44,739 bases of DNA from a virus, in the UHGV virus genome UHGV-0135379, one strand, 5' to 3'. The notes beneath the pieces were generated by a model. It was given only the letters and a program-made list of their open reading frames with translations, ran no database searches and was not told where the DNA came from. Every line of letters starts with the position of its first letter. Positions within the stretch are counted from its first letter, which is position 1. This document shows, piece after piece, positions 4,374 to 37,487 of the stretch. A program made the position numbers and the translations under genes.

Positions 4374-4402
4374 TTGCAGACACCAATATAATAGGGTACT
4401 AT
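4374..4402 (+). promoter_or_regulatory. Promoter TTGCAG-N17-TACTAT with AATAG-N4-CTATT box (4390-4403); drives the 63-aa moron
   Basis: Shares a 21-bp identical core with 2242-2262; correct spacing to ATG 4431. Confidence 0.6.
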
Positions 4403-4430
4403 TCAGTTATCGGAACGAGGAGATACATAA

Positions 4431-4622
4431 ATGTTATATTCTAAAGAATGGTATGAAATCATGGAATTATTCGAGAAGAACTGCAAGGGGCGCTTCCGCT
4501 TCGATCGTGAAACAAAAGAAATGTGGAAAATTGGTGCATACTATGAGAACGGTGAATGCAACGAATGGTTTAAAATGTATCTCGCGGGGTATATGGCGGG
4601 GCGAGCAGCGTACCTTAACTAA
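4431..4622 (+). CDS. Hypothetical 63-aa protein; moron with its own promoter and terminator
   Basis: ATG with GAGGAG RBS, promoter 4374-4402 upstream, hairpin plus T-run downstream; AT-rich; inserted between portal and head gene. Confidence 0.6.
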   Translation: MLYSKEWYEIMELFEKNCKGRFRFDRETKEMWKIGAYYENGECNEWFKMYLAGYMAGRAAYLN

Positions 4623-8678: not shown

Positions 8679-8861
8679 TCACCCCACTATCTCATCACCG
8701 AGCCACGCCGTTTCTCGTATATCATCGACCACACAGGCAGCATGCTCACGGCTAATTGCAAAAATGTAGAAGCTGAACTTCTTCCCGTCGGCGTCGATGT
8801 GGTTAACCGAGTATGGTTTCCACAGGACGCCATCAATAACTACTGGCTTAGGCAACTCCAT
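8679..8861 (-). CDS. Hypothetical protein (start uncertain; track ORF extends to 8945)
   Basis: Open frame; several candidate ATGs (8861, 8912, 8927), none with a strong RBS. Confidence 0.3.
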   Translation of the reverse strand: MELPKPVVIDGVLWKPYSVNHIDADGKKFSFYIFAISREHAACVVDDIRETAWLGDEIVG

Positions 8862-9087
8862 ACGCTTTACCGCACTTAATGCATGTGGCGCGATGTAACC
8901 CACCAACCACATGTAGGTAGTAGTCATGCGCACAAGGCTTTTCACCCTCTTTCAACTTATCAAGTAATAACTTAAACGCCTCCAGTTGAAACTCACCGTT
9001 AATTGACAGTTGCCCGCCTAACGTCTGTTTCTCTGACTCAAGGACCAGAATACGACGCTCAAGTGACGCGATTGTGATTTTAGGCAT
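8848..9087 (-). CDS. Hypothetical Cys/His-containing protein (79 aa)
   Basis: ATG overlaps upstream stop (TAATG); C..H...C..C spacing suggests a small zinc-binding fold. Confidence 0.5.
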   Translation of the reverse strand: MPKITIASLERRILVLESEKQTLGGQLSINGEFQLEAFKLLLDKLKEGEKPCAHDYYLHVVGGLHRATCIKCGKAYGVA

Positions 9088-10040: not shown

Positions 10041-10069
10041 AATATAATAGGGTCGAGGATAATAGTCAA
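10041..10069 (-). promoter_or_regulatory. Promoter TTGACT-N17-TATATT on the minus strand, upstream of 9806-10006
   Basis: 5/6 and 5/6 matches to sigma70 hexamers, 17-bp spacer, right after the lysis-operon terminator; carries only a half-box (CCCTATTATATT). Confidence 0.55.
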
Positions 10070-10187: not shown

Positions 10188-10673
10188 TCAACCTTTCACC
10201 GCGCGCCCGATAGCCTCAGCCTCCTGCCACGGTTTACCGTCGAACAGCGCCAGACGACCGGCGGTACGACGACGCAGTCCAAGTATCGGTTTGCCGTTCT
10301 GGTTGATGAACAGCGCCAGCTTAGCCCGCAGAGTCGTGACGTCACCAGAACGCAGCGCCTTACCTGTGCCCGTGGTAGCGGCAATCACGCCAGCGCCTGC
10401 GTTGTAGACCAGGTCACACACAGCGTCGAACTGTGCCTGTGTCAGTGAATGGTGCGCTGCCGCATCAACCGCAGCTACGGCTTTAGCCATATCGCGATTA
10501 AGTAACAGGAGGCCTTGTCCTGGAGTGATGGTCTGCCCCGCCTTAACATGCGGGCCATAGCTTCCATACCCAATAGTCAGGTACTTCTCATTCGGTGTAG
10601 CGCGATACGCGGTTCCGCGGAATCCCTCGAACGCGGCGGTGAATTTGATGCCATTGTTGCTAATGTTTCTCAT
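10188..10673 (-). CDS. Endolysin (T4/P22-type lysozyme-like muramidase)
   Basis: N-terminal ISNNGI..FEGFRG..Y motif typical of phage lysozymes; ATG overlaps HNH stop; terminator follows. Confidence 0.85.
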   Translation of the reverse strand: MRNISNNGIKFTAAFEGFRGTAYRATPNEKYLTIGYGSYGPHVKAGQTITPGQGLLLLNRDMAKAVAAVDAAAHHSLTQAQFDAVCDLVYNAGAGVIAATTGTGKALRSGDVTTLRAKLALFINQNGKPILGLRRRTAGRLALFDGKPWQEAEAIGRAVKG

Positions 10674-11203
10674 AAAGCACCTTCCCGTAATTTATGGTTC
10701 GCGAAAACCCCGTGTATCTTCTCTCTAGCTTCTTCGGCAACTAGCGCGGCTAGTTCTAGGTCCGCAAAGTATCCGTAAAAATACTTAATCTTATGTATTT
10801 TTAATTGAACGTACCATCCTCCTTGTTGCTTCTGCCACATAACGTTCTTAATACCGGATTTGCTGTCCTTTCTTGGCCCTTTGTTGCATCCGTTTTCGGA
10901 TTTGTTGGCTTCACGTAAATTACAGAATCTATTATCACGACCATCGCCGTTTATGTGGTCTATTAGGGAGTTGGGCCATTCCCCTGTCATGTATAGCCAA
11001 GCGAGACGATGCGCCAAGTACCGCTTCCCACCGAAGGCTATGGAGCGATAGCCTGCACAATGGTTGGCGCCAGCCTCACTTCCCGCCCGAGCATTGTGCA
11101 CACGTGTAGCTTTCCATGTAAAAACTCCGGTATCGGGGTCGTAGTGTAAAACCTCGCGCAGCTTATCTGCGGTAAGTCCATTATCTGAAATGTTTCGAGA
11201 CAC
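10670..11203 (-). CDS. HNH homing-type endonuclease (GTG start)
   Basis: LHYDPDTGVFTWK N-terminus and H-N-H/Cys cluster (DHINGDGRDNRFCNL); sits between holin genes and endolysin. Confidence 0.8.
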   Translation of the reverse strand: MSRNISDNGLTADKLREVLHYDPDTGVFTWKATRVHNARAGSEAGANHCAGYRSIAFGGKRYLAHRLAWLYMTGEWPNSLIDHINGDGRDNRFCNLREANKSENGCNKGPRKDSKSGIKNVMWQKQQGGWYVQLKIHKIKYFYGYFADLELAALVAEEAREKIHGVFANHKLREGAL

Positions 11204-12858: not shown

Positions 12859-12889
12859 CTTCTGTCTCTCCTCTTGTTTGTGTAAATGA

Positions 12890-12918
12890 ATAGTAGCCTA
12901 TTCTATCTTAGTGTGCAA
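12890..12918 (-). promoter_or_regulatory. Promoter TTGCAC-N17-TACTAT (minus strand) with AATAG-N4-CTATT box (12889-12902)
   Basis: Same architecture as the moron promoters; followed by strong RBS and ATG at 12858. Confidence 0.6.
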
Positions 12919-14004: not shown

Positions 14005-14038
14005 AACCATCACTCCTCTGTCTCGTTCCGATAAGTGA

Positions 14039-14067
14039 ATAGTATCCTATTATGTTGGGGTGTGCAA
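14039..14067 (-). promoter_or_regulatory. Leftward early promoter TTGCAC-N17-TACTAT with AATAG-N4-CTATT box (14038-14051)
   Basis: Near-identical to the element at 2231-2262 in reverse orientation; upstream of gene 13819-14004. Confidence 0.6.
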
Positions 14068-14229: not shown

Positions 14230-14376
14230 TTTACAATAGATTATGGCCCTTCCGAATGCCGGCAGCGACACTACACTCAGTGCTGACGCACCGCTCCGTT
14301 TCCTGCCGCACCGCGGTCGCTTGTTCATACTTCACAAGCTCAGGTGGAGCTTAGCACATTTCTTAGTAAAAGTCAA
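14230..14376 (+). repeat. Copy B of the ~150-bp non-coding element (perfect 51-bp core at 14311-14361)
   Basis: Same orientation as copy A; lies in the 470-bp divergent early intergenic region. Confidence 0.8.
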
Positions 14377-14483: not shown

Positions 14484-14666
14484 ATGCAGCATTACATGAC
14501 ACAGAATGAAGTGGCTGAACGTATCGGGGTGACACGTCAAACAATTAATAACTGGTTGCGCAGCGGTAAATTCCCTGATTGCTGTATTAAGGTTATGGGT
14601 CGCCGTTTACCAGGAACATTTGACCGTAATAAAGTTGAAGCATGGATTAAGGAGAACGTGAAATGA
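14484..14666 (+). CDS. Small HTH DNA-binding protein (AlpA/excisionase-like fold), 60 aa
   Basis: Motif RIGVTRQTINNW; ATG with AGGAGA RBS; first gene of the rightward replication block. Confidence 0.6.
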   Translation: MQHYMTQNEVAERIGVTRQTINNWLRSGKFPDCCIKVMGRRLPGTFDRNKVEAWIKENVK

Positions 14667-15072: not shown

Positions 15073-17321
15073 ATATTGTTTTTGCAACGCTGCGCAACAC
15101 ATTCGATAAAAACCCTGTAGCGCGTGAGATGCCGCTCGAGCAGTTTGTGGAGTATGTCTGCGATACATCGAAGCGTTTATCCGTGGATCCGTCGTGGTCT
15201 AAGGAAGAGTACGACGCTGCCAAGATTAAGCAGAAAGCTATTGCGCCTGTTGGGGGTCGCCGTAAAAACGCTATCCTGGAAGACAGTGTGGTTAAGTTCG
15301 ATTTTGACCATCTCAACCGTACTCAGTACCGCGACCTTACCCGCAAATTCAAGAACGCACCGTTCTTCAATATTCTGCATACAACGGCATCGCATCAGCA
15401 TGTGTGTAAAAACGGTGATTACGCCTTCCGCGTTCTGGTTCCGGCTCGCACGCCGTTTAACTCTAACGACGCGTGGATGGTCCAACGGGCTATTTGTGCA
15501 GAGTTAGAAATAGATGAAGCCTTGCGTGACCACTGCACGGAAGACGGCAACCGCCTTATCTATCTGCCACATAGAGAGTCAAAGATAACGGTTACAGAAG
15601 GGCGTGTTATCCGTGCCGAGCGGTACATCAAGAAAGCCGAAGAGATGGGGTTGAGTAAACGTGAAGTTAAGACACTTGCCGCCGATGAGTATGGGCTTAA
15701 CGCTGATATAGCGCATTTCTGCGAAGCCGAGCTTGGCCTTGACGCTTTATCTTCCGGGCGCGGGTACGAAGTCCCATGCCCTAACGAACATCTGCATACA
15801 GGCAAAGGCTCCACAAGCATCATGCTTGATGGTAAAGAAGTGCGCTTTGTGTGCCAGCATACAAACAACGGCGCTTGCACCGAGCTTAACCGCCGACAGC
15901 ATTTGGCCCTGCGTATGTGCGGCCTGCCAGACGAGCTTAACGTAGACAAGCAACCTATCAGTATTAACAGCATTCGTGCGGCTCTGCCTGATTTACCGGA
16001 TGAAGAGATTGAAGAACTGCACCGCACAGAGAACGAGGAGCCTGTAACTTGCACGCTGGAAGACCTTGAAGAAGAGGACGAGTTACCAGAACCGGTAAAG
16101 GCTGATTTCGTCGTTGAGGGGTACATGCCGTCGGATTGTATCTGGGATATTGTCGGGGAATCCGGCACGTACAAATCATTCTATACGCTGGGGATGATGT
16201 ACCTGAGCGCCGCCGGGTACCGGTTTGCGGGGGCTGACACCCAACGTTGCCACCATTTCTATATTGACGGCGAGGGTGGTGCAGCTACACGAACACGTAT
16301 TGATGCACTCGCGGCTAAATATGGCGAGGAAGGTAAAGATTATGTACATGTCATCGATATGGGCGAAATACTCGCTACGCATGGTGATAAAAAAATTCCA
16401 GCTCTAATCCGCAGGATGCGCGAAACCGCAGGGGATGAACCTATTGGCATGGTTGCCTTCGACACCCTTAACCAGACGCTGGCCCTGACGATTGATAAGT
16501 TCGACGAGAACAGTTCATCAACGGCAATCGGTATGGGTAAAGTTATCGCCATCCTGAAAGAAGTGCGCGATGCAACTAAAGCCGCTGTCGGTGTCGTTCA
16601 CCATACTCCGAAGGGCGGAAAGAAAGCCCGCGGCAGTGGAGCATTGTATGCGGGTGTCGACGTGGAACTGACAATCGAACGCGCTACCGACCGTCAGATA
16701 AACGTATACCACTCTAAATTTAAGCACGGTCCGCAACAGAAGACGGTTGGCATGGTACTGGAGTCTGTACAGTTCCGTGAAGCACCGCCGCCGAAAGAGT
16801 ACCGCGCGGTTGAGTTCCTCGGTAGCACAGAGGAATACGGCACAATAGTAAACCTCGACCTGCCTGAGCCGCACAAGGCGCTTGTATTGATGCCGTGGGG
16901 CTTCGAGCCATTCAAGACCGACGAGGAGAAAGAGAGGGAAGAAGGGTTAACTAACGAAGGTAAACAAAATGTACGTAAAACCATAGAGAACGCCGTCAAC
17001 AGTTCCGAGGCCACGATACTCGCGGCGTTTGAACTGGCGGAGGGGACCTACAACGGCAACGAGGGCATCACGGTATCCGCAGCGAATAAGCTCGCGCAGT
17101 CTGACCCCAACGCAAAGGCGTTTAACTCCAAAGAAGCCATAGAACGCGGGAAGATTAAGAAAATGGTTGAGGCTGGGTATCTTGTTCCGGGTACTGACGA
17201 AAACAATCAGATAATCCCAGGCCGTTACAGACTGAACACCATGATAACAGATAACAAGATTCCGAAGACAATATACGAGCCGAATGAAATGCTGACAGTG
17301 ACCGAGGAGGATTTGGAATGA
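15069..17321 (+). CDS. DNA primase-polymerase (AEP-type) fused to a RecA/DnaB-like replicative helicase
   Basis: N-terminal DxD and sxH motifs (FDFDHL, ILHTTASH) plus Cys/His zinc cluster; C-terminal Walker A (GESGTYKS) and Walker B (VAFDTL). Confidence 0.8.
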   Translation: MNIVFATLRNTFDKNPVAREMPLEQFVEYVCDTSKRLSVDPSWSKEEYDAAKIKQKAIAPVGGRRKNAILEDSVVKFDFDHLNRTQYRDLTRKFKNAPFFNILHTTASHQHVCKNGDYAFRVLVPARTPFNSNDAWMVQRAICAELEIDEALRDHCTEDGNRLIYLPHRESKITVTEGRVIRAERYIKKAEEMGLSKREVKTLAADEYGLNADIAHFCEAELGLDALSSGRGYEVPCPNEHLHTGKGSTSIMLDGKEVRFVCQHTNNGACTELNRRQHLALRMCGLPDELNVDKQPISINSIRAALPDLPDEEIEELHRTENEEPVTCTLEDLEEEDELPEPVKADFVVEGYMPSDCIWDIVGESGTYKSFYTLGMMYLSAAGYRFAGADTQRCHHFYIDGEGGAATRTRIDALAAKYGEEGKDYVHVIDMGEILATHGDKKIPALIRRMRETAGDEPIGMVAFDTLNQTLALTIDKFDENSSSTAIGMGKVIAILKEVRDATKAAVGVVHHTPKGGKKARGSGALYAGVDVELTIERATDRQINVYHSKFKHGPQQKTVGMVLESVQFREAPPPKEYRAVEFLGSTEEYGTIVNLDLPEPHKALVLMPWGFEPFKTDEEKEREEGLTNEGKQNVRKTIENAVNSSEATILAAFELAEGTYNGNEGITVSAANKLAQSDPNAKAFNSKEAIERGKIKKMVEAGYLVPGTDENNQIIPGRYRLNTMITDNKIPKTIYEPNEMLTVTEEDLE

Positions 17322-17632
17322 ATATTTACGATTTTATAGATAACCCGTTTAAAGCAGTGAAGGCAGGATACCGCCCGTCATACCTGACATGTGTTTCCGC
17401 TGTAAGCAACAACTGGTGGACTTTTTGTGTGTATGCAGCGGGGATTTTTGCGGAGTTTAAAGACATTTTAGACATGACGCTGGCAGAGATTATAAAGTGC
17501 CTTTTCAAATTAATTATATCGATAACTATTGTTATAAGTTTTCCTGTAAGTGCGTGGTTTCTCGCCTGGATTCAGTACCTGAACGTGCAACACACTATTA
17601 AGAATTTGGAAGAACTCGATAAGTTGCTATAA
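17318..17632 (+). CDS. AT-rich membrane protein of unknown function (104 aa)
   Basis: ATG overlapping upstream stop; hydrophobic helices; markedly lower GC than flanks. Confidence 0.55.
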   Translation: MNIYDFIDNPFKAVKAGYRPSYLTCVSAVSNNWWTFCVYAAGIFAEFKDILDMTLAEIIKCLFKLIISITIVISFPVSAWFLAWIQYLNVQHTIKNLEELDKLL

Positions 17633-17656
17633 AAAGAAAGGGGCTTTAAGCCCCTT
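17630..17656 (-). terminator. Terminator hairpin overlapping the end of the Cro-like regulator gene
   Basis: Stem AGGGGCTT/AAGCCCCT followed by TCTTTTT on the minus strand; no T-run on the plus strand. Confidence 0.5.
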
Positions 17657-17861
17657 CACCTAACGCCAGCCACTTGGCGTCTACTTCCAGAACTTCCGCC
17701 AGTTTGAACAGCGTTGCCGGGCGGACGTCCTGAGTTACTCCAAGTGCCAGTTGGTTAATCGCGCCCTGGGAAACGCCGGTCAGGGCCGCCAAACGGCGCT
17801 GGGAGATGCCGAGTTCTTTACGGCGTTGTTCTACACGGATACCTAGTTCAGATGGTTGCAT
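17646..17861 (-). CDS. XRE-family HTH regulator (Cro/CI-like, 71 aa)
   Basis: Motif QRRLAALTGVSQGAINQL; transcribed divergently from the rightward genes across an operator-bearing promoter region. Confidence 0.8.
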   Translation of the reverse strand: MQPSELGIRVEQRRKELGISQRRLAALTGVSQGAINQLALGVTQDVRPATLFKLAEVLEVDAKWLALGEGA

Positions 17862-17891
17862 GTCAATTACTCCTTAGTCAGTTGATATGTG

Positions 17892-17905
17892 AATAGTACC
17901 ATATT
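17892..17905. promoter_or_regulatory. Degenerate operator copy (AATAG-TACC-ATATT) next to the start of the Cro-like regulator gene
   Basis: One intact half-site; lies 30 nt from the regulator ATG at 17861 and 30 nt from the operator at 17936-17949. Confidence 0.4.
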
Positions 17906-17925
17906 AATTATTTTAGAAAAGCCCA

Positions 17926-17954
17926 TTGACATGTGAATAGTTCGCTATTATAGT
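17926..17954 (+). promoter_or_regulatory. Strong rightward promoter TTGACA-N17-TATAGT with AATAG-TTCG-CTATT operator in the spacer
   Basis: Consensus -35, 17-bp spacer, 5/6 -10; divergent to the regulator gene; RBS and ATG 17983 downstream. Confidence 0.7.
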
Positions 17955-17982
17955 TAGCCCATACCAAACGAGAGGGGCGGAT

Positions 17983-18210
17983 ATGAACACAATAACGGGA
18001 GCCATAGCTAAAGGTTTTCTAGCAATTTTCGGAGAATCGCAGGAAGTGTGCACAAAACATAAATTTGTACTTTCTTGCGTAGTCGGGGACGAGTTTGATG
18101 GGTTCGATAAACTTGTTGTCTGCGACCATTGCGGGCAAGAAGCTATACAACACTCAAACGGTAAATTTGAATTAATAGACGATAGCCTTACAGAAGGCGA
18201 CGGCGAGTAA
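17983..18210 (+). CDS. Cys-rich small protein (75 aa), first gene after the strong rightward promoter
   Basis: ATG with GAGAGGGG RBS; C..C...C..H..C spacing suggests a zinc-binding fold. Confidence 0.55.
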   Translation: MNTITGAIAKGFLAIFGESQEVCTKHKFVLSCVVGDEFDGFDKLVVCDHCGQEAIQHSNGKFELIDDSLTEGDGE

Positions 18211-18234
18211 CCCAAATAAACAGGAGAATAAATA

Positions 18235-18759
18235 ATGTTAGAGAAATTCTTAGTATTACTGGAACGTTTCGTAGTTGCGCACGAACTGATTGCCGCGAAC
18301 AGTGCACGCCGTACTGAACTGCCGAAGGCTATCACTGCGCAATATGGTAAAGACGTCGACAGTGGTGTTGCAGAAACTGCAACAATCACGCCTACTGTTG
18401 TAAAAGAAGAAACAAAAGAAATCCCGGTTGAAGGTGAAGACGTAGTTGACACCAAACCGGCAGAAGAAGAAGAAGAGAAGCCTAAACGCAAGCCGCGTAA
18501 AGCTAAAGTCGAGGAACCTACGCCAGAGCCGGAAGAAGAGAAAGAAGAAGTCGATTACAAGTCTCTGCGTGACCAGATTCAGGCCATCGACGATGCAATT
18601 AATGAAGGTCCTAGCGATGCCGCGTGCGATGATTCTGATGAACTGCTGGAAGAGTTCACAGGTAAGAAGATGAAGATTGCCGCGATTAAAGACGAAGACC
18701 TGGTTGAGTACCTGGAACGCCTGACAGCAATCAAGAACAAGTATTTCGAAGAAGAATAA
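18235..18759 (+). CDS. Highly acidic early protein (174 aa)
   Basis: ATG with AGGAGA RBS; long Glu/Asp-rich segments. Confidence 0.6.
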   Translation: MLEKFLVLLERFVVAHELIAANSARRTELPKAITAQYGKDVDSGVAETATITPTVVKEETKEIPVEGEDVVDTKPAEEEEEKPKRKPRKAKVEEPTPEPEEEKEEVDYKSLRDQIQAIDDAINEGPSDAACDDSDELLEEFTGKKMKIAAIKDEDLVEYLERLTAIKNKYFEEE

Positions 18760-20492: not shown

Positions 20493-20692
20493 TTCAAGTA
20501 AATGAAATGCCGACTGATAAAGATTTTTTGATGGTATGGCGCTGGGATGGGTATCTACACTCGGAATCGTTCACGTTCTTGAACGGTACCATGATGCGAT
20601 ACGACCCTGTAGAGGATGAGTTCGAACCGGCCAATATGCTTAATTTCGAGAACATAATCCCTATTGCAAAATTTTATTTGACACATGAATAG
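20489..20692 (+). CDS. Hypothetical protein (67 aa)
   Basis: ATG overlapping exonuclease stop, GAGGAGGA RBS embedded in the exonuclease C-terminal codons. Confidence 0.5.
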   Translation: MIQVNEMPTDKDFLMVWRWDGYLHSESFTFLNGTMMRYDPVEDEFEPANMLNFENIIPIAKFYLTHE

Positions 20693-20706
20693 TTAGCTAT
20701 TATAGT
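20678..20706 (+). promoter_or_regulatory. Promoter TTGACA-N17-TATAGT with AATAG-TTAG-CTATT operator; upstream of SSB-like and DNA polymerase genes
   Basis: Near-identical architecture to 17926-17954; overlaps the stop of gene 20489-20692. Confidence 0.65.
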
Positions 20707-23659: not shown

Positions 23660-23692
23660 ACCGATATAGTGGCTATGTCGGTATTTTTTTTT
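23660..23692 (+). terminator. Rho-independent terminator after the DNA polymerase gene
   Basis: About 10-bp stem followed by a T9 run. Confidence 0.65.
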
Positions 23693-23702
23693 GGAGTTAT
23701 TA

Positions 23703-24398
23703 ATGAAAAAGTGTTCAAGATGCGGCGAAGATAAACCGGCGACTACAGAGTATTTTTCAAAGTCAACGCGCCTCGGGCTGCAACGCTGGTGTAAAGAGTG
23801 TGTAAATGCTAACAGGAAGGAAAAGTATGACGAAAAACTTAAATTACAAGGTAAATCCAGACGAGAAAGCCCTTGGTATGTTTTCACTGGGAAGCCTGTT
23901 AAATGCAGAAAGTGTGGGGAGGTAAAACCTTTAACAGAGGAAAACTTCAGGAAAGGAAATAAAAGTAATGGCTCTCATATCAGGAAAGATTGCCGGGAGT
24001 GTCTCAACAAGCAACGCAGGGAACTGGTGAATAAGGACCAAAGGACGCGGGCGTACGCGCTTTTGTTAGGATACAAAAGAGCAGATTCAGGAAAAGGGCT
24101 TATCTGCGATTTAACACTGGAAAGCGTTATTAAACTAATATCACAGCCATGCCATTATTGCGGAAGCACTACAAAAGTCGGGGTAGACCGCATAGATAAT
24201 ACAAGCGGGCACATAGTATCTAACTGCGTTTCTTGTTGTCAGACATGTAATCTTACCAGAGGACACCGGTTTACATTCATTGAAATGGTTACGGAGATAG
24301 GTCCCGCCATTAAAAGAATAAAAGCGGCGAGAGAAGTTTCACATATACCGTCTTTTCCTAATAGGTGGCCTGAAGGAGAATGTAGAGATGCCAAGTAA
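23703..24398 (+). CDS. HNH endonuclease with N-terminal zinc-ribbon repeats
   Basis: Repeated C..C pairs and HNH-like core VDRIDNTSGH...NCVSCCQTCN; AT-rich; ATG with GGAG RBS (track ORF starts at a TTG at 23691). Confidence 0.7.
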   Translation: MKKCSRCGEDKPATTEYFSKSTRLGLQRWCKECVNANRKEKYDEKLKLQGKSRRESPWYVFTGKPVKCRKCGEVKPLTEENFRKGNKSNGSHIRKDCRECLNKQRRELVNKDQRTRAYALLLGYKRADSGKGLICDLTLESVIKLISQPCHYCGSTTKVGVDRIDNTSGHIVSNCVSCCQTCNLTRGHRFTFIEMVTEIGPAIKRIKAAREVSHIPSFPNRWPEGECRDAK

Positions 24399-24754: not shown

Positions 24755-25035
24755 CCCCGGAAGGCAAGATTCAGAAATACGCAAAAGAGCGATTCGAGGC
24801 CATTGGTGGCCTCGTTCGTAAACTTTCCTACGAGGGGCGCTCCGGTGCTCCTGACCTGCTGGTAATTCTCCCCGGCGGCATCGTCTGGTTCGTCGAGGTT
24901 AAGAAAGACGAAAATACGAAGCCAGACCCACACCAGTTACGTGAGCATGAGCGGATGCGTAAACGCGGTGCAAATGTTTTTGTCGTCGGTTCGTTTAAAC
25001 AGGTTGACGACCTAATAGCGAACTATTATAGTTAG
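24751..25035 (+). CDS. VRR-NUC domain nuclease
   Basis: PD-(D/E)XK-type core GAPDLLVIL...FVEVK; 94 aa. Confidence 0.75.
   Translation: MTPEGKIQKYAKERFEAIGGLVRKLSYEGRSGAPDLLVILPGGIVWFVEVKKDENTKPDPHQLREHERMRKRGANVFVVGSFKQVDDLIANYYS
25004..25032 (+). promoter_or_regulatory. Promoter TTGACG-N17-TATAGT with AATAG-CGAA-CTATT operator; upstream of 25066 and the SNF2 helicase
   Basis: Same architecture as 17926 and 20678; overlaps the last codons of the VRR-NUC gene. Confidence 0.6.
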
Positions 25036-37416: not shown

Positions 37417-37445
37417 TTGCACACCCTGATATAATAGCGTACTAT
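37417..37445 (+). promoter_or_regulatory. Promoter TTGCAC-N17-TACTAT with AATAG-CGTA-CTATT box (37433-37446); drives the 4-gene plus-strand island
   Basis: Same architecture as the moron and leftward early promoters; about 40 nt upstream of ATG 37488. Confidence 0.6.
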
Positions 37446-37487
37446 TCACTTACACCAACGATGTTATCTCAAATCAGGAGTTATGTT

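Follow-up and report, generated by a model that had tools for sequence, protein, structure and literature searches.

The stretch analysed here (the window) is UHGV virus genome UHGV-0135379, 44,739 nt in length, and this report concerns a small regulator gene in it, the divergent promoter region beside that gene, and a palindrome that recurs in promoters elsewhere in the genome. The best megablast match of the region was vB_EcoM_SHAK7858 (98.4%), and its matches were Escherichia phages of the genus Kagunavirus (Guernseyvirinae). When the 76 proteins annotated in phage fEg-Eco06 were mapped to the window, a complete, circularly permuted Kagunavirus genome was seen, in which the major capsid gene is split between both ends; approximately 93% of the window is coding and 7% non-coding. 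The regulator gene (17646-17861, minus strand) encodes an XRE/Cro-type protein (HTH_3) of 71 amino acids (aa) with an ATG start, and is separated by 121 nt from the next rightward gene. As the initial annotation had described, the gene carries a helix-turn-helix (HTH) of the XRE type and is transcribed leftward, divergently from a strong rightward promoter.

The regulator matched Pfam HTH_3 (PF01381) over residues 11-65 with 49.7 bits (cut-off, 23 bits; E = 3.9e-13); HTH_19 and HTH_31 were matched as well. The closest solved structures by sequence were 434 Cro (phmmer E = 8.5e-6) and the N-terminal domain of the 434 repressor (1.1e-5), and the identity to 434 Cro in a structural alignment was 39%. 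An AlphaFold2 model (predicted local distance difference test score, 81) had a compact all-alpha five-helix fold, with helices assigned at residues 5-17, 21-28, 32-39, and 48-68, the C-terminal helix being of low confidence. Using Foldseek, template modelling (TM) scores of 0.6-0.7 were obtained with HipB, 434 Cro, P22 c2, SinR, and C-proteins. The glutamine at the start of the recognition helix was conserved in the alignment with the 434 proteins; in 434, this residue reads operator position 1. The regulator consists of the HTH domain only, without a C-terminal oligomerisation domain or an S24 self-cleavage domain.

Homologues of the regulator were found by tblastn in 537 phage records, of which approximately 117 shared at least 90% identity with it; the others were mostly Salmonella phages at approximately 48%. 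No close homologue was found in 185,579 species-representative bacterial genomes, in a search of limited sensitivity. The labels given to the gene in GenBank vary (transcriptional repressor, Cro, DicA, hypothetical), and a Cro-type gene has been said to be entirely absent from these phages (PMC5217580); no account of the regulator's function or of the palindrome set was found in the searchable literature. The pairwise ratio of nonsynonymous to synonymous substitution (dN/dS) was approximately 0.05 among 34 distinct alleles, and the gene is therefore not a decaying remnant. A distant homologue (38% identity) was also observed in an unrelated viral contig, in which four or five GATATCTGT-like repeats lie upstream of the gene (contig positions 2340-2440) around a TTGACA, that is, a different operator set in the same position relative to the gene.

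The rightward promoter, P_R (TTGACA-17-TATAGT; 17926-17954, plus strand; -35 at 17926-17931 and -10 at 17949-17954), gave 11 of 12 matches and was the best promoter-like site within 17300-18300; both hexamers were nearly invariant among the relatives. On the opposite strand, the promoter-like site P_L (TTCACA-16-TAAAAT; 17937-17910, minus strand; 10 of 12 matches) was predicted from its position and sequence to be the promoter of the regulator. A perfect 14-bp palindrome, the candidate operator O1 (AATAGTTCGCTATT; 17936-17949), lies inside the P_R spacer with its centre at approximately -18.5 of P_R and -39.5 of P_L, and its left edge is overlapped by the -35 of P_L (17937-17932). The weaker candidate operator, O2 (AATAGTACCATATT; 17892-17905), has one mismatch (right arm ATATT) and is located 31 nt from the regulator ATG (17861), at approximately +4.5 of the predicted P_L start. 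O2 is carried by a weak tandem copy of P_R (TTGATA-18-AATTAT; 17882-17911, plus strand; 9 of 12 matches), the -10 of which overlaps that of P_L (17915-17910). Indeed, both operator copies lie in a 25-nt direct repeat (17882-17906 and 17926-17950) with 84% identity and an offset of 44 nt, and the 11-mer ATGTGAATAGT has only two exact occurrences in the 44.7-kb window, both of them in this intergenic region. One operator copy in the P_R spacer and a degenerate one near the regulator start, as anticipated initially, were thus located. Of the lambda-like geometry that had been proposed, the divergent arrangement and the operator in the spacer held, whereas the two operators are 44 bp apart instead of three being adjacent.

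Downstream of the regulator gene, a G+C-rich hairpin resembling an intrinsic terminator (17637-17657, both strands; inverted repeat of 9 + 9 nt, 100% complementary) is common to the regulator gene and the convergent primase operon, and includes a terminator-like site on the minus strand; the initial annotation had listed neither this hairpin nor P_L. A perfect 9-nt inverted repeat, CATGTCAAT / ATTGACATG (17859-17867 and 17925-17933), links the start-codon region of the regulator with the -35 of P_R; it is kept in most Kagunavirus relatives and may be due to chance. The CRP half-site TGTGA, which is present in O1 and O2, was also considered as a possible site for a host regulator and was rejected: no second half was found, and the motif differs between two Salmonella phage genera.

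On the other side, the P_R operon of this genome begins with a gene (17983-18210, plus strand; 75 aa; phrog_32657, unknown function) whose product had no Pfam match and no PDB sequence match and is no recognisable regulator. The gene is accessory, being present in 5 of 37 relatives and absent from 32. In approximately two thirds of the relatives, no gene intervenes between P_R and the homologue of the following gene, and a few have a different small gene first. The following gene (18235-18759, plus strand; 174 aa; phrog_3127, unknown function) is accordingly the conserved first or second gene of the operon, found in 37 of 37 relatives. With a single regulator closest to 434 Cro and an accessory first rightward gene, the locus holds no Cro/CI pair, and the Cro/CI-like switch that had been supposed was borne out only in part.

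A palindrome shared by promoters across the genome

The palindrome of O1, AATAG-N4-CTATT, ranked first among all 5-mer gapped palindromes with gaps of 0-8, with 8 exact copies in the genome; in 40 Markov simulations, the maximum for any palindrome was 2-3 copies. When one mismatch or fewer was allowed, 11 sites were found against 1.1 expected, comprising the 8 exact sites, O2, and 2 doubtful one-mismatch sites. The exact sites start at 2247, 4390, 12889, 14038, 17936, 20688, 25014, and 37433. Seven of them are in non-coding gaps and one is in the last bases of a gene. The count of two operator copies was therefore correct for the regulator locus and too low for the genome, in which the same palindrome is found in the core of seven more sigma-70 promoters.

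All eight exact sites were located at fixed registers within -35/-10 pairs, and a repeat search independently recovered the same two promoter families. In class A (17936, 20688, and 25014), TTGACA is followed by 4 nt, the palindrome, and ATAGT, and the site is in the spacer with its centre at approximately -18.5. In class B (2247, 4390, 12889, 14038, and 37433), TTGCAC is followed by 10 nt and the palindrome, the centre is at approximately -12.5, and the right arm is part of a TACTAT -10. TATAAT was tried as the -10 of class B and rejected, as no -35 was found at 16-18 bp and TGn was present in only one of the five; TTGCAC-17-TACTAT gave the consistent register.

Class A promoters head three replication modules. 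In addition to O1 in P_R, the operator AATAGTTAGCTATT (20688-20701; TTGACA-17-TATAGT) is located ahead of the SSB (DUF2815) and DNA polymerase genes, and AATAGCGAACTATT (25014-25027; TTGACG-17-TATAGT) ahead of g56, the SNF2 helicase gene, and the toprim gene. Class B promoters head five units. The operator AATAGCGTACTATT (37433-37446; TTGCAC-17-TACTAT), in a divergent gap with the tail operon, precedes the superinfection-immunity, exonuclease, PNK, and dNMP kinase genes. Two leftward promoters contain AATAGTATCCTATT (14038-14051), ahead of g73-g76, and AATAGTAGCCTATT (12889-12902), ahead of the lysis cassette, a cluster of g02-g06, holin, HNH, and endolysin genes. The remaining two are rightward promoters with the operator AATAGGGTACTATT, heading small units on the strand opposite to their surroundings. 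The one at 2247-2260 precedes genes (2287-2729) for a hydrophobic peptide of 33 aa and a lipoprotein of 114 aa with the lipobox LSGC (phrog_13472), which are antisense to late genes. The other, at 4390-4403, precedes a gene for 63 aa (4431-4622, plus strand) with no family, which lies between the portal and minor head genes, opposite to the late structural genes. These two units look like morons.

The palindrome was absent from the promoter-like sites of the primase operon, the terminase-portal unit, and the head-tail unit, and from the TTGACT-type sites at 10061, 2156, and 14376. In the divergent gaps at 37433-37446, 2247-2260, and 14038-14051, hexamers resembling a -10 border the palindrome on both strands (e.g., leftward TTGGTG-16-TATTAT at 37433), and a single operator could govern a back-to-back promoter pair, the promoter of the tail operon included.

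The intergenic region was compared in 36 unique sequences, 35 from the 37 relatives together with the window. In the arms of O1 and O2, none of 20 positions varied, against 4 of 8 in the centres and 43 of 93 elsewhere in the intergenic region (Fisher p = 2e-5), a pattern that is evidence for the palindrome being a selected protein-binding site. The four central nucleotides of O1 had at least six forms among the relatives. The one-base departure of O2 from symmetry was fixed in 37 of 37 relatives, as expected of a deliberately weaker site. One regulator allele had a G33S change with the sites unchanged; otherwise, both the recognition helix and the operator were invariant within the genus.

Tandem sites were found only beside the regulator gene, and this was the case in Kagunavirus, Jerseyvirus, and Cornellvirus. 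The spacing of O1 and O2 was 44, 55, and 63-64 bp in these genera, respectively, corresponding to 4.2, 5.2, and 6.0 helical turns, and this near-whole-turn spacing in three genera hints weakly at cooperative binding. The identity of the regulator to that of Kagunavirus was 48% in Jerseyvirus and 40% in Cornellvirus, the latter with a different recognition helix. At the orthologous promoters of Jerseyvirus, AATAG-N4-CTATT is retained, and a register of +7 from the -35 also occurs there. In Cornellvirus, this motif was absent even with one mismatch allowed, and ATTAG-N4-GTAWT was found at five promoters (null, approximately 0.6). Since the motif changed in concert and Jerseyvirus and Cornellvirus share the host species Salmonella enterica, a phage-encoded binding factor is indicated. 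The regulator and NinH are present in all three genera, whereas the HTH_17 protein described below is missing from Cornellvirus. Across the three genera, the operators are kept at 5-8 promoters.

The arrangement of the neighbouring primase genes also differed among genera. The regulator gene is convergent with the primase operon in Kagunavirus and Jerseyvirus. In Cornellvirus (Shemara, VSiP) and Scappvirus, both genes share a strand and the regulator gene precedes the primase gene; it follows that an inversion of the primase module relative to the switch has taken place.

Proposed role of the regulator in a lytic phage

Taken together, these findings lead us to favour, on balance and with reservations, the view that the regulator is an autoregulated Cro-like global repressor or timer of the lytic cycle, and not half of a lysis-lysogeny switch. 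Timing of transcription in a lytic cycle, one of the two roles offered in the initial annotation, is accordingly the most likely reading. The parts are of a known kind, a Cro-type repressor with palindromic operators; the configuration is unusual, with a single regulator, an obligately lytic phage subfamily, and an operator built into approximately eight promoters. The evidence that connects the regulator with the palindrome is good circumstantial evidence and not proof, and it is from sequence that we infer the binding itself, its repressive effect, and the order of events.

In the proposed mechanism, the regulator would be a homodimer like phage 434 Cro, and its operator would be the 14-bp AATAG-N4-CTATT. 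Upon infection, host RNA polymerase would fire the strong promoters, including P_R and P_L, and the regulator would accumulate. Perfect sites would be filled first, whereby the class A replication promoters would be shut and the -10 of the class B promoters occluded. At its own locus, the rising level of the regulator would shut P_R first and its own synthesis afterwards, as O2, at the start of the P_L transcript, would be filled later and would limit the regulator level. The regulator would thus act as a delay or a brake on a defined set of promoters used by host RNA polymerase. By analogy with lambda PRM or the promoters of C-proteins, P_L might also be transiently activated from O1 (at approximately -39.5), although this is speculative. 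In RNA sequencing of a Kagunavirus, a "Helix-turn-helix" gene, K1B4_008, was among only four early genes (PMC12645636); judging from gene order, K1B4_008 is probably the regulator gene.

Several observations weigh against this proposal. The identification of K1B4_008 with the regulator gene is no more than probable, and the time course in question was coarse (PMC12645636). The recognition helix is QSLITH in Jerseyvirus and QGAINQ in Kagunavirus, yet the core motif is identical, and the covariation of protein and site is therefore only partial. A further small DNA-binding protein, NinH, likewise occurs throughout the three genera. The right arm of the class B sites is itself a predicted -10 (TACTAT), with -10-like flanks on both strands, and part of the conservation of the palindrome could reflect promoter function. 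Finally, a brake on the promoter of the lysis cassette has no obvious logic.

The second and third of these points bear on whether the palindrome is bound by another factor (NinH, the HTH_17 protein, an unannotated phage protein, or a host protein), with the regulator acting at other targets or only locally. We consider this unlikely. NinH has the required distribution over the three genera, the motif is unchanged between Kagunavirus and Jerseyvirus in spite of the different recognition helices, and the HTH_17 gene (14484-14666, plus strand; 60 aa; phrog_66, "excisionase and transcriptional regulator") opens the primase operon, whose promoter is free of the palindrome, so that the HTH_17 protein could be made first. 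However, tandem sites occur solely at the regulator gene in three genera, and a 14-bp palindrome of 5 + 4 + 5 suits a dimer of the 434 Cro type. The HTH_17 protein was judged an unlikely binder, since it is missing from Cornellvirus, where the motif persists. A host factor is at odds with the different motifs of Jerseyvirus and Cornellvirus in a common host species.

The promoter-like character of the palindrome itself would be accounted for if there were no repressor and the palindrome were intrinsic to the promoters, either as copies of an ancestral promoter cassette or as back-to-back -10-like hexamers for divergent transcription. The flanks do give TATTAT, TACTAT, or TATAAT on both strands, five of the eight sites are in gaps between divergent genes, and the promoters form sequence families. 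Nevertheless, this explanation appears rather improbable. The palindrome stands at two or three registers from the -35 (+4 and +10, and +7 in Jerseyvirus), and it is intact in the unidirectional promoters at 20688 and 25014, where no promoter function falls to the left arm. The centre and the bases beside the -35 vary but the arms do not, O2 is conserved though not in a good promoter, and all Cornellvirus sites changed in concert.

Pfam scans of the real open reading frames (ORFs) with at least 150 aa, other than those for the tape measure, capsid, and endolysin, revealed no integrase, serine recombinase, ParA/B, or protelomerase; those others were recognised from 92-99% identity to genes annotated in fEg-Eco06. 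The annotations of fEg-Eco06, Shemara, and pC16EC0033-2 likewise list no integrase, recombinase, partition, or protelomerase function, in agreement with the initial annotation, which had noted no integrase or partition genes. It had also noted no excisionase-integrase pair; no integrase is indeed present, whereas the excisionase-like HTH_17 gene at 14484-14666 is. The HTH_17 protein is 82% identical in Jerseyvirus, absent from Cornellvirus Shemara, and without an integrase partner, and its Jerseyvirus counterpart has been described as an orphan TorI-like recombination directionality factor (PMC9409062). Approximately 31 kb of the genome gave no match in 5,426 complete E. coli genomes, and no temperate relative was found in these or in the species-representative genomes. 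A Jerseyvirus query gave no match to a Salmonella plasmid. Jerseyvirus has been termed apparently strictly virulent (PMC9409062), and lytic isolates of these phages have been reported (PMC5217580, PMC12919940).

The search for an integrase or stable lysogens, either of which had been named as a possible refutation of the initial reading, was negative, save for one plasmid-labelled record. Among 72,556 plasmids in PLSDB, the single match was CP088689.1 ("plasmid pC16EC0033-2"), a circular record of 44,086 bp from an E. coli blood isolate (Korea); the record is a whole Kagunavirus genome. It shares with the window identical regulator and HTH_17 proteins, a primase of 99.7% identity, and the same operator set. 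The record stems from a lytic phage that was carried over or else reflects a carrier state.

The latter would be an example of a third explanation, in which the regulator is a true immunity repressor that silences most of the genome, and the phage is kept as a non-integrated, unpartitioned episome (carrier state or pseudolysogeny). Operators in most non-structural promoters are also the dispersed-operator design of P1 and L5. We nonetheless regard this explanation as distinctly improbable. A single record in 72,556 plasmids would be explained by contamination or lytic carry-over, and the absence of matches among the E. coli genomes and the Salmonella plasmids, as well as of partition, integrase, and protelomerase genes, argues against it. 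Moreover, the primase, terminase, and head-tail promoters have no operator, and the protein has no domain for cooperativity or induction. These phages are treated as virulent in the reports cited above (PMC9409062, PMC5217580, PMC12919940).

A last explanation, in which gene and sites have no function and are left over from a temperate ancestor (the other possibility offered initially), is scarcely credible: the lack of an integrase and the partnerless excisionase-like gene (PMC9409062) would fit, whereas the selection data (dN/dS of approximately 0.05 over 34 alleles, the gene in 537 phage records, and invariant operators kept with it at 5-8 promoters in three genera) contradict it.

Comparison with known systems and other features of the genome

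The regulator resembles phage 434 Cro in its length of 71 aa and in the HTH_3 fold class, and 434 Cro was its best PDB sequence match. The operators of 434 are 14 bp long with a 4-bp centre that is not contacted, and the sites described here have the same layout of a 5-bp arm, four variable central bases, and a 5-bp arm. Unlike in 434, the half-site is AATAG instead of ACAAG, there is no partner CI, three-operator array, or prophage state, and the sites are spread across eight promoters instead of two operator regions. Similarity to lambda CI/Cro is seen in the divergent promoters with common operator DNA, one site being in the core of the rightward promoter, in the weaker site that would limit the regulator's own synthesis, and in the position of O1 at approximately -39.5 of P_L, near that from which CI activates PRM. 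Unlike lambda, the phage has one regulator without an antagonistic partner, two sites 44 bp apart from centre to centre, and an accessory first rightward gene, and it has no S24 or oligomerisation domain in the regulator, no integrase, and no cII/cIII.

The use of one small repressor with many scattered sites in many transcription units would be shared with the immunity repressors P1 C1 and mycobacteriophage L5 gp71. P1 and L5 are temperate and their sites are asymmetric, and the stoperators of L5 are in transcribed DNA and depend on orientation; in contrast, the present sites are palindromic and in promoter cores, with no known prophage state. The C-proteins of restriction-modification (R-M) systems (C.AhdI, C.BclI, and C.Esp1396I) are small XRE dimers, with TM scores of approximately 0.62-0.65 to the regulator model. 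In these systems, a strong and a weak site at the C-protein's own promoter constitute a concentration-dependent timer. Their C-boxes are adjacent in the promoter of a single R-M operon, whereas the sites at the regulator are 44 bp apart and seven additional promoters have one; no R-M genes flank the regulator locus. Finally, Cro-like genes are retained by virulent derivatives of temperate dairy phages, such as those of the S. thermophilus Sfi19 type, and in both cases a Cro-type regulator is kept in a phage without integrase. The Sfi19-type phages are recent deletion derivatives with temperate sisters; unlike them, a whole subfamily is concerned here, with strong purifying selection in three genera and a co-conserved operator set at multiple promoters.

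Several other features of the genome were observed. An HNH_3 endonuclease gene (10670-11203, minus strand) is inserted between the holin and endolysin genes, and an endonuclease VII/HNH-like gene (23691-24398, plus strand) follows the DNA polymerase gene, in a region where fEg-Eco06 instead has two small hypothetical genes. The cytosine methyltransferase gene of fEg-Eco06 has no counterpart in the window. The gene at 8685-8864 (minus strand) has a homologue in fEg-Eco06 labelled "RNA polymerase inhibitor, similar to 2LMC_A" (T7 Gp2). This identification was rejected: the product had no sequence match to any PDB chain, T7 Gp2 included, and the label is unsupported at the sequence level.

An element of approximately 145 nt occurs twice, at 2022-2164 and 14234-14376 (minus strand), with approximately 88% identity overall and 92% in the two best ungapped blocks. 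Each copy has a TTGACT-17-TAAGCT promoter-like site at its start and, after it, approximately 120 nt of conserved leader. One copy is placed at the head of the operon for spanin, scaffold, and capsid, and an annotated ORF of 36 aa inside this copy (2006-2116) is probably not coding; the other is within a 470-nt gap ahead of the primase operon. One hairpin of the element has two compensatory pairs between the copies (CGGGAC/GUCCUG versus CGGUGC/GCACUG), the folding z-score was -1.9, and no family in Rfam matched the repeated leader element of 150 nt. The element occurs in Kagunaviruses (one copy in fEg-Eco06) and not in Jersey or Shemara; it might function in cis as a leader RNA, for instance in antitermination. 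The Rfam int-alpA RNA (RF02996) was matched by the segment 37334-37398 (minus strand), within the leader of the operon for tail assembly and tape measure, with 36.6 bits, just above the gathering score of 35.8. A possible conserved leader motif, AYACCAAMS, was not enriched, with 4 found against 2.9 expected.

Kagunavirus and Jerseyvirus are common candidates for therapy and biocontrol, one Kagunavirus also serves as a chassis for synthetic biology (PMC11990801), and the regulation of these phages is not described in the searchable literature. A "repressor" annotation in these genomes should not on its own count as evidence of temperate potential, which bears on safety calls, while the plasmid-like record CP088689.1 still deserves a check. 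If the proposal is true, one 71-aa protein together with one 14-bp site would account for how no fewer than eight transcription units are controlled in a lytic phage dependent on host RNA polymerase. The regulator, its operator, and the promoters would then form a compact and portable set and, through deletion of the gene or its supply in trans, offer a simple handle for engineering timing or conditional replication.

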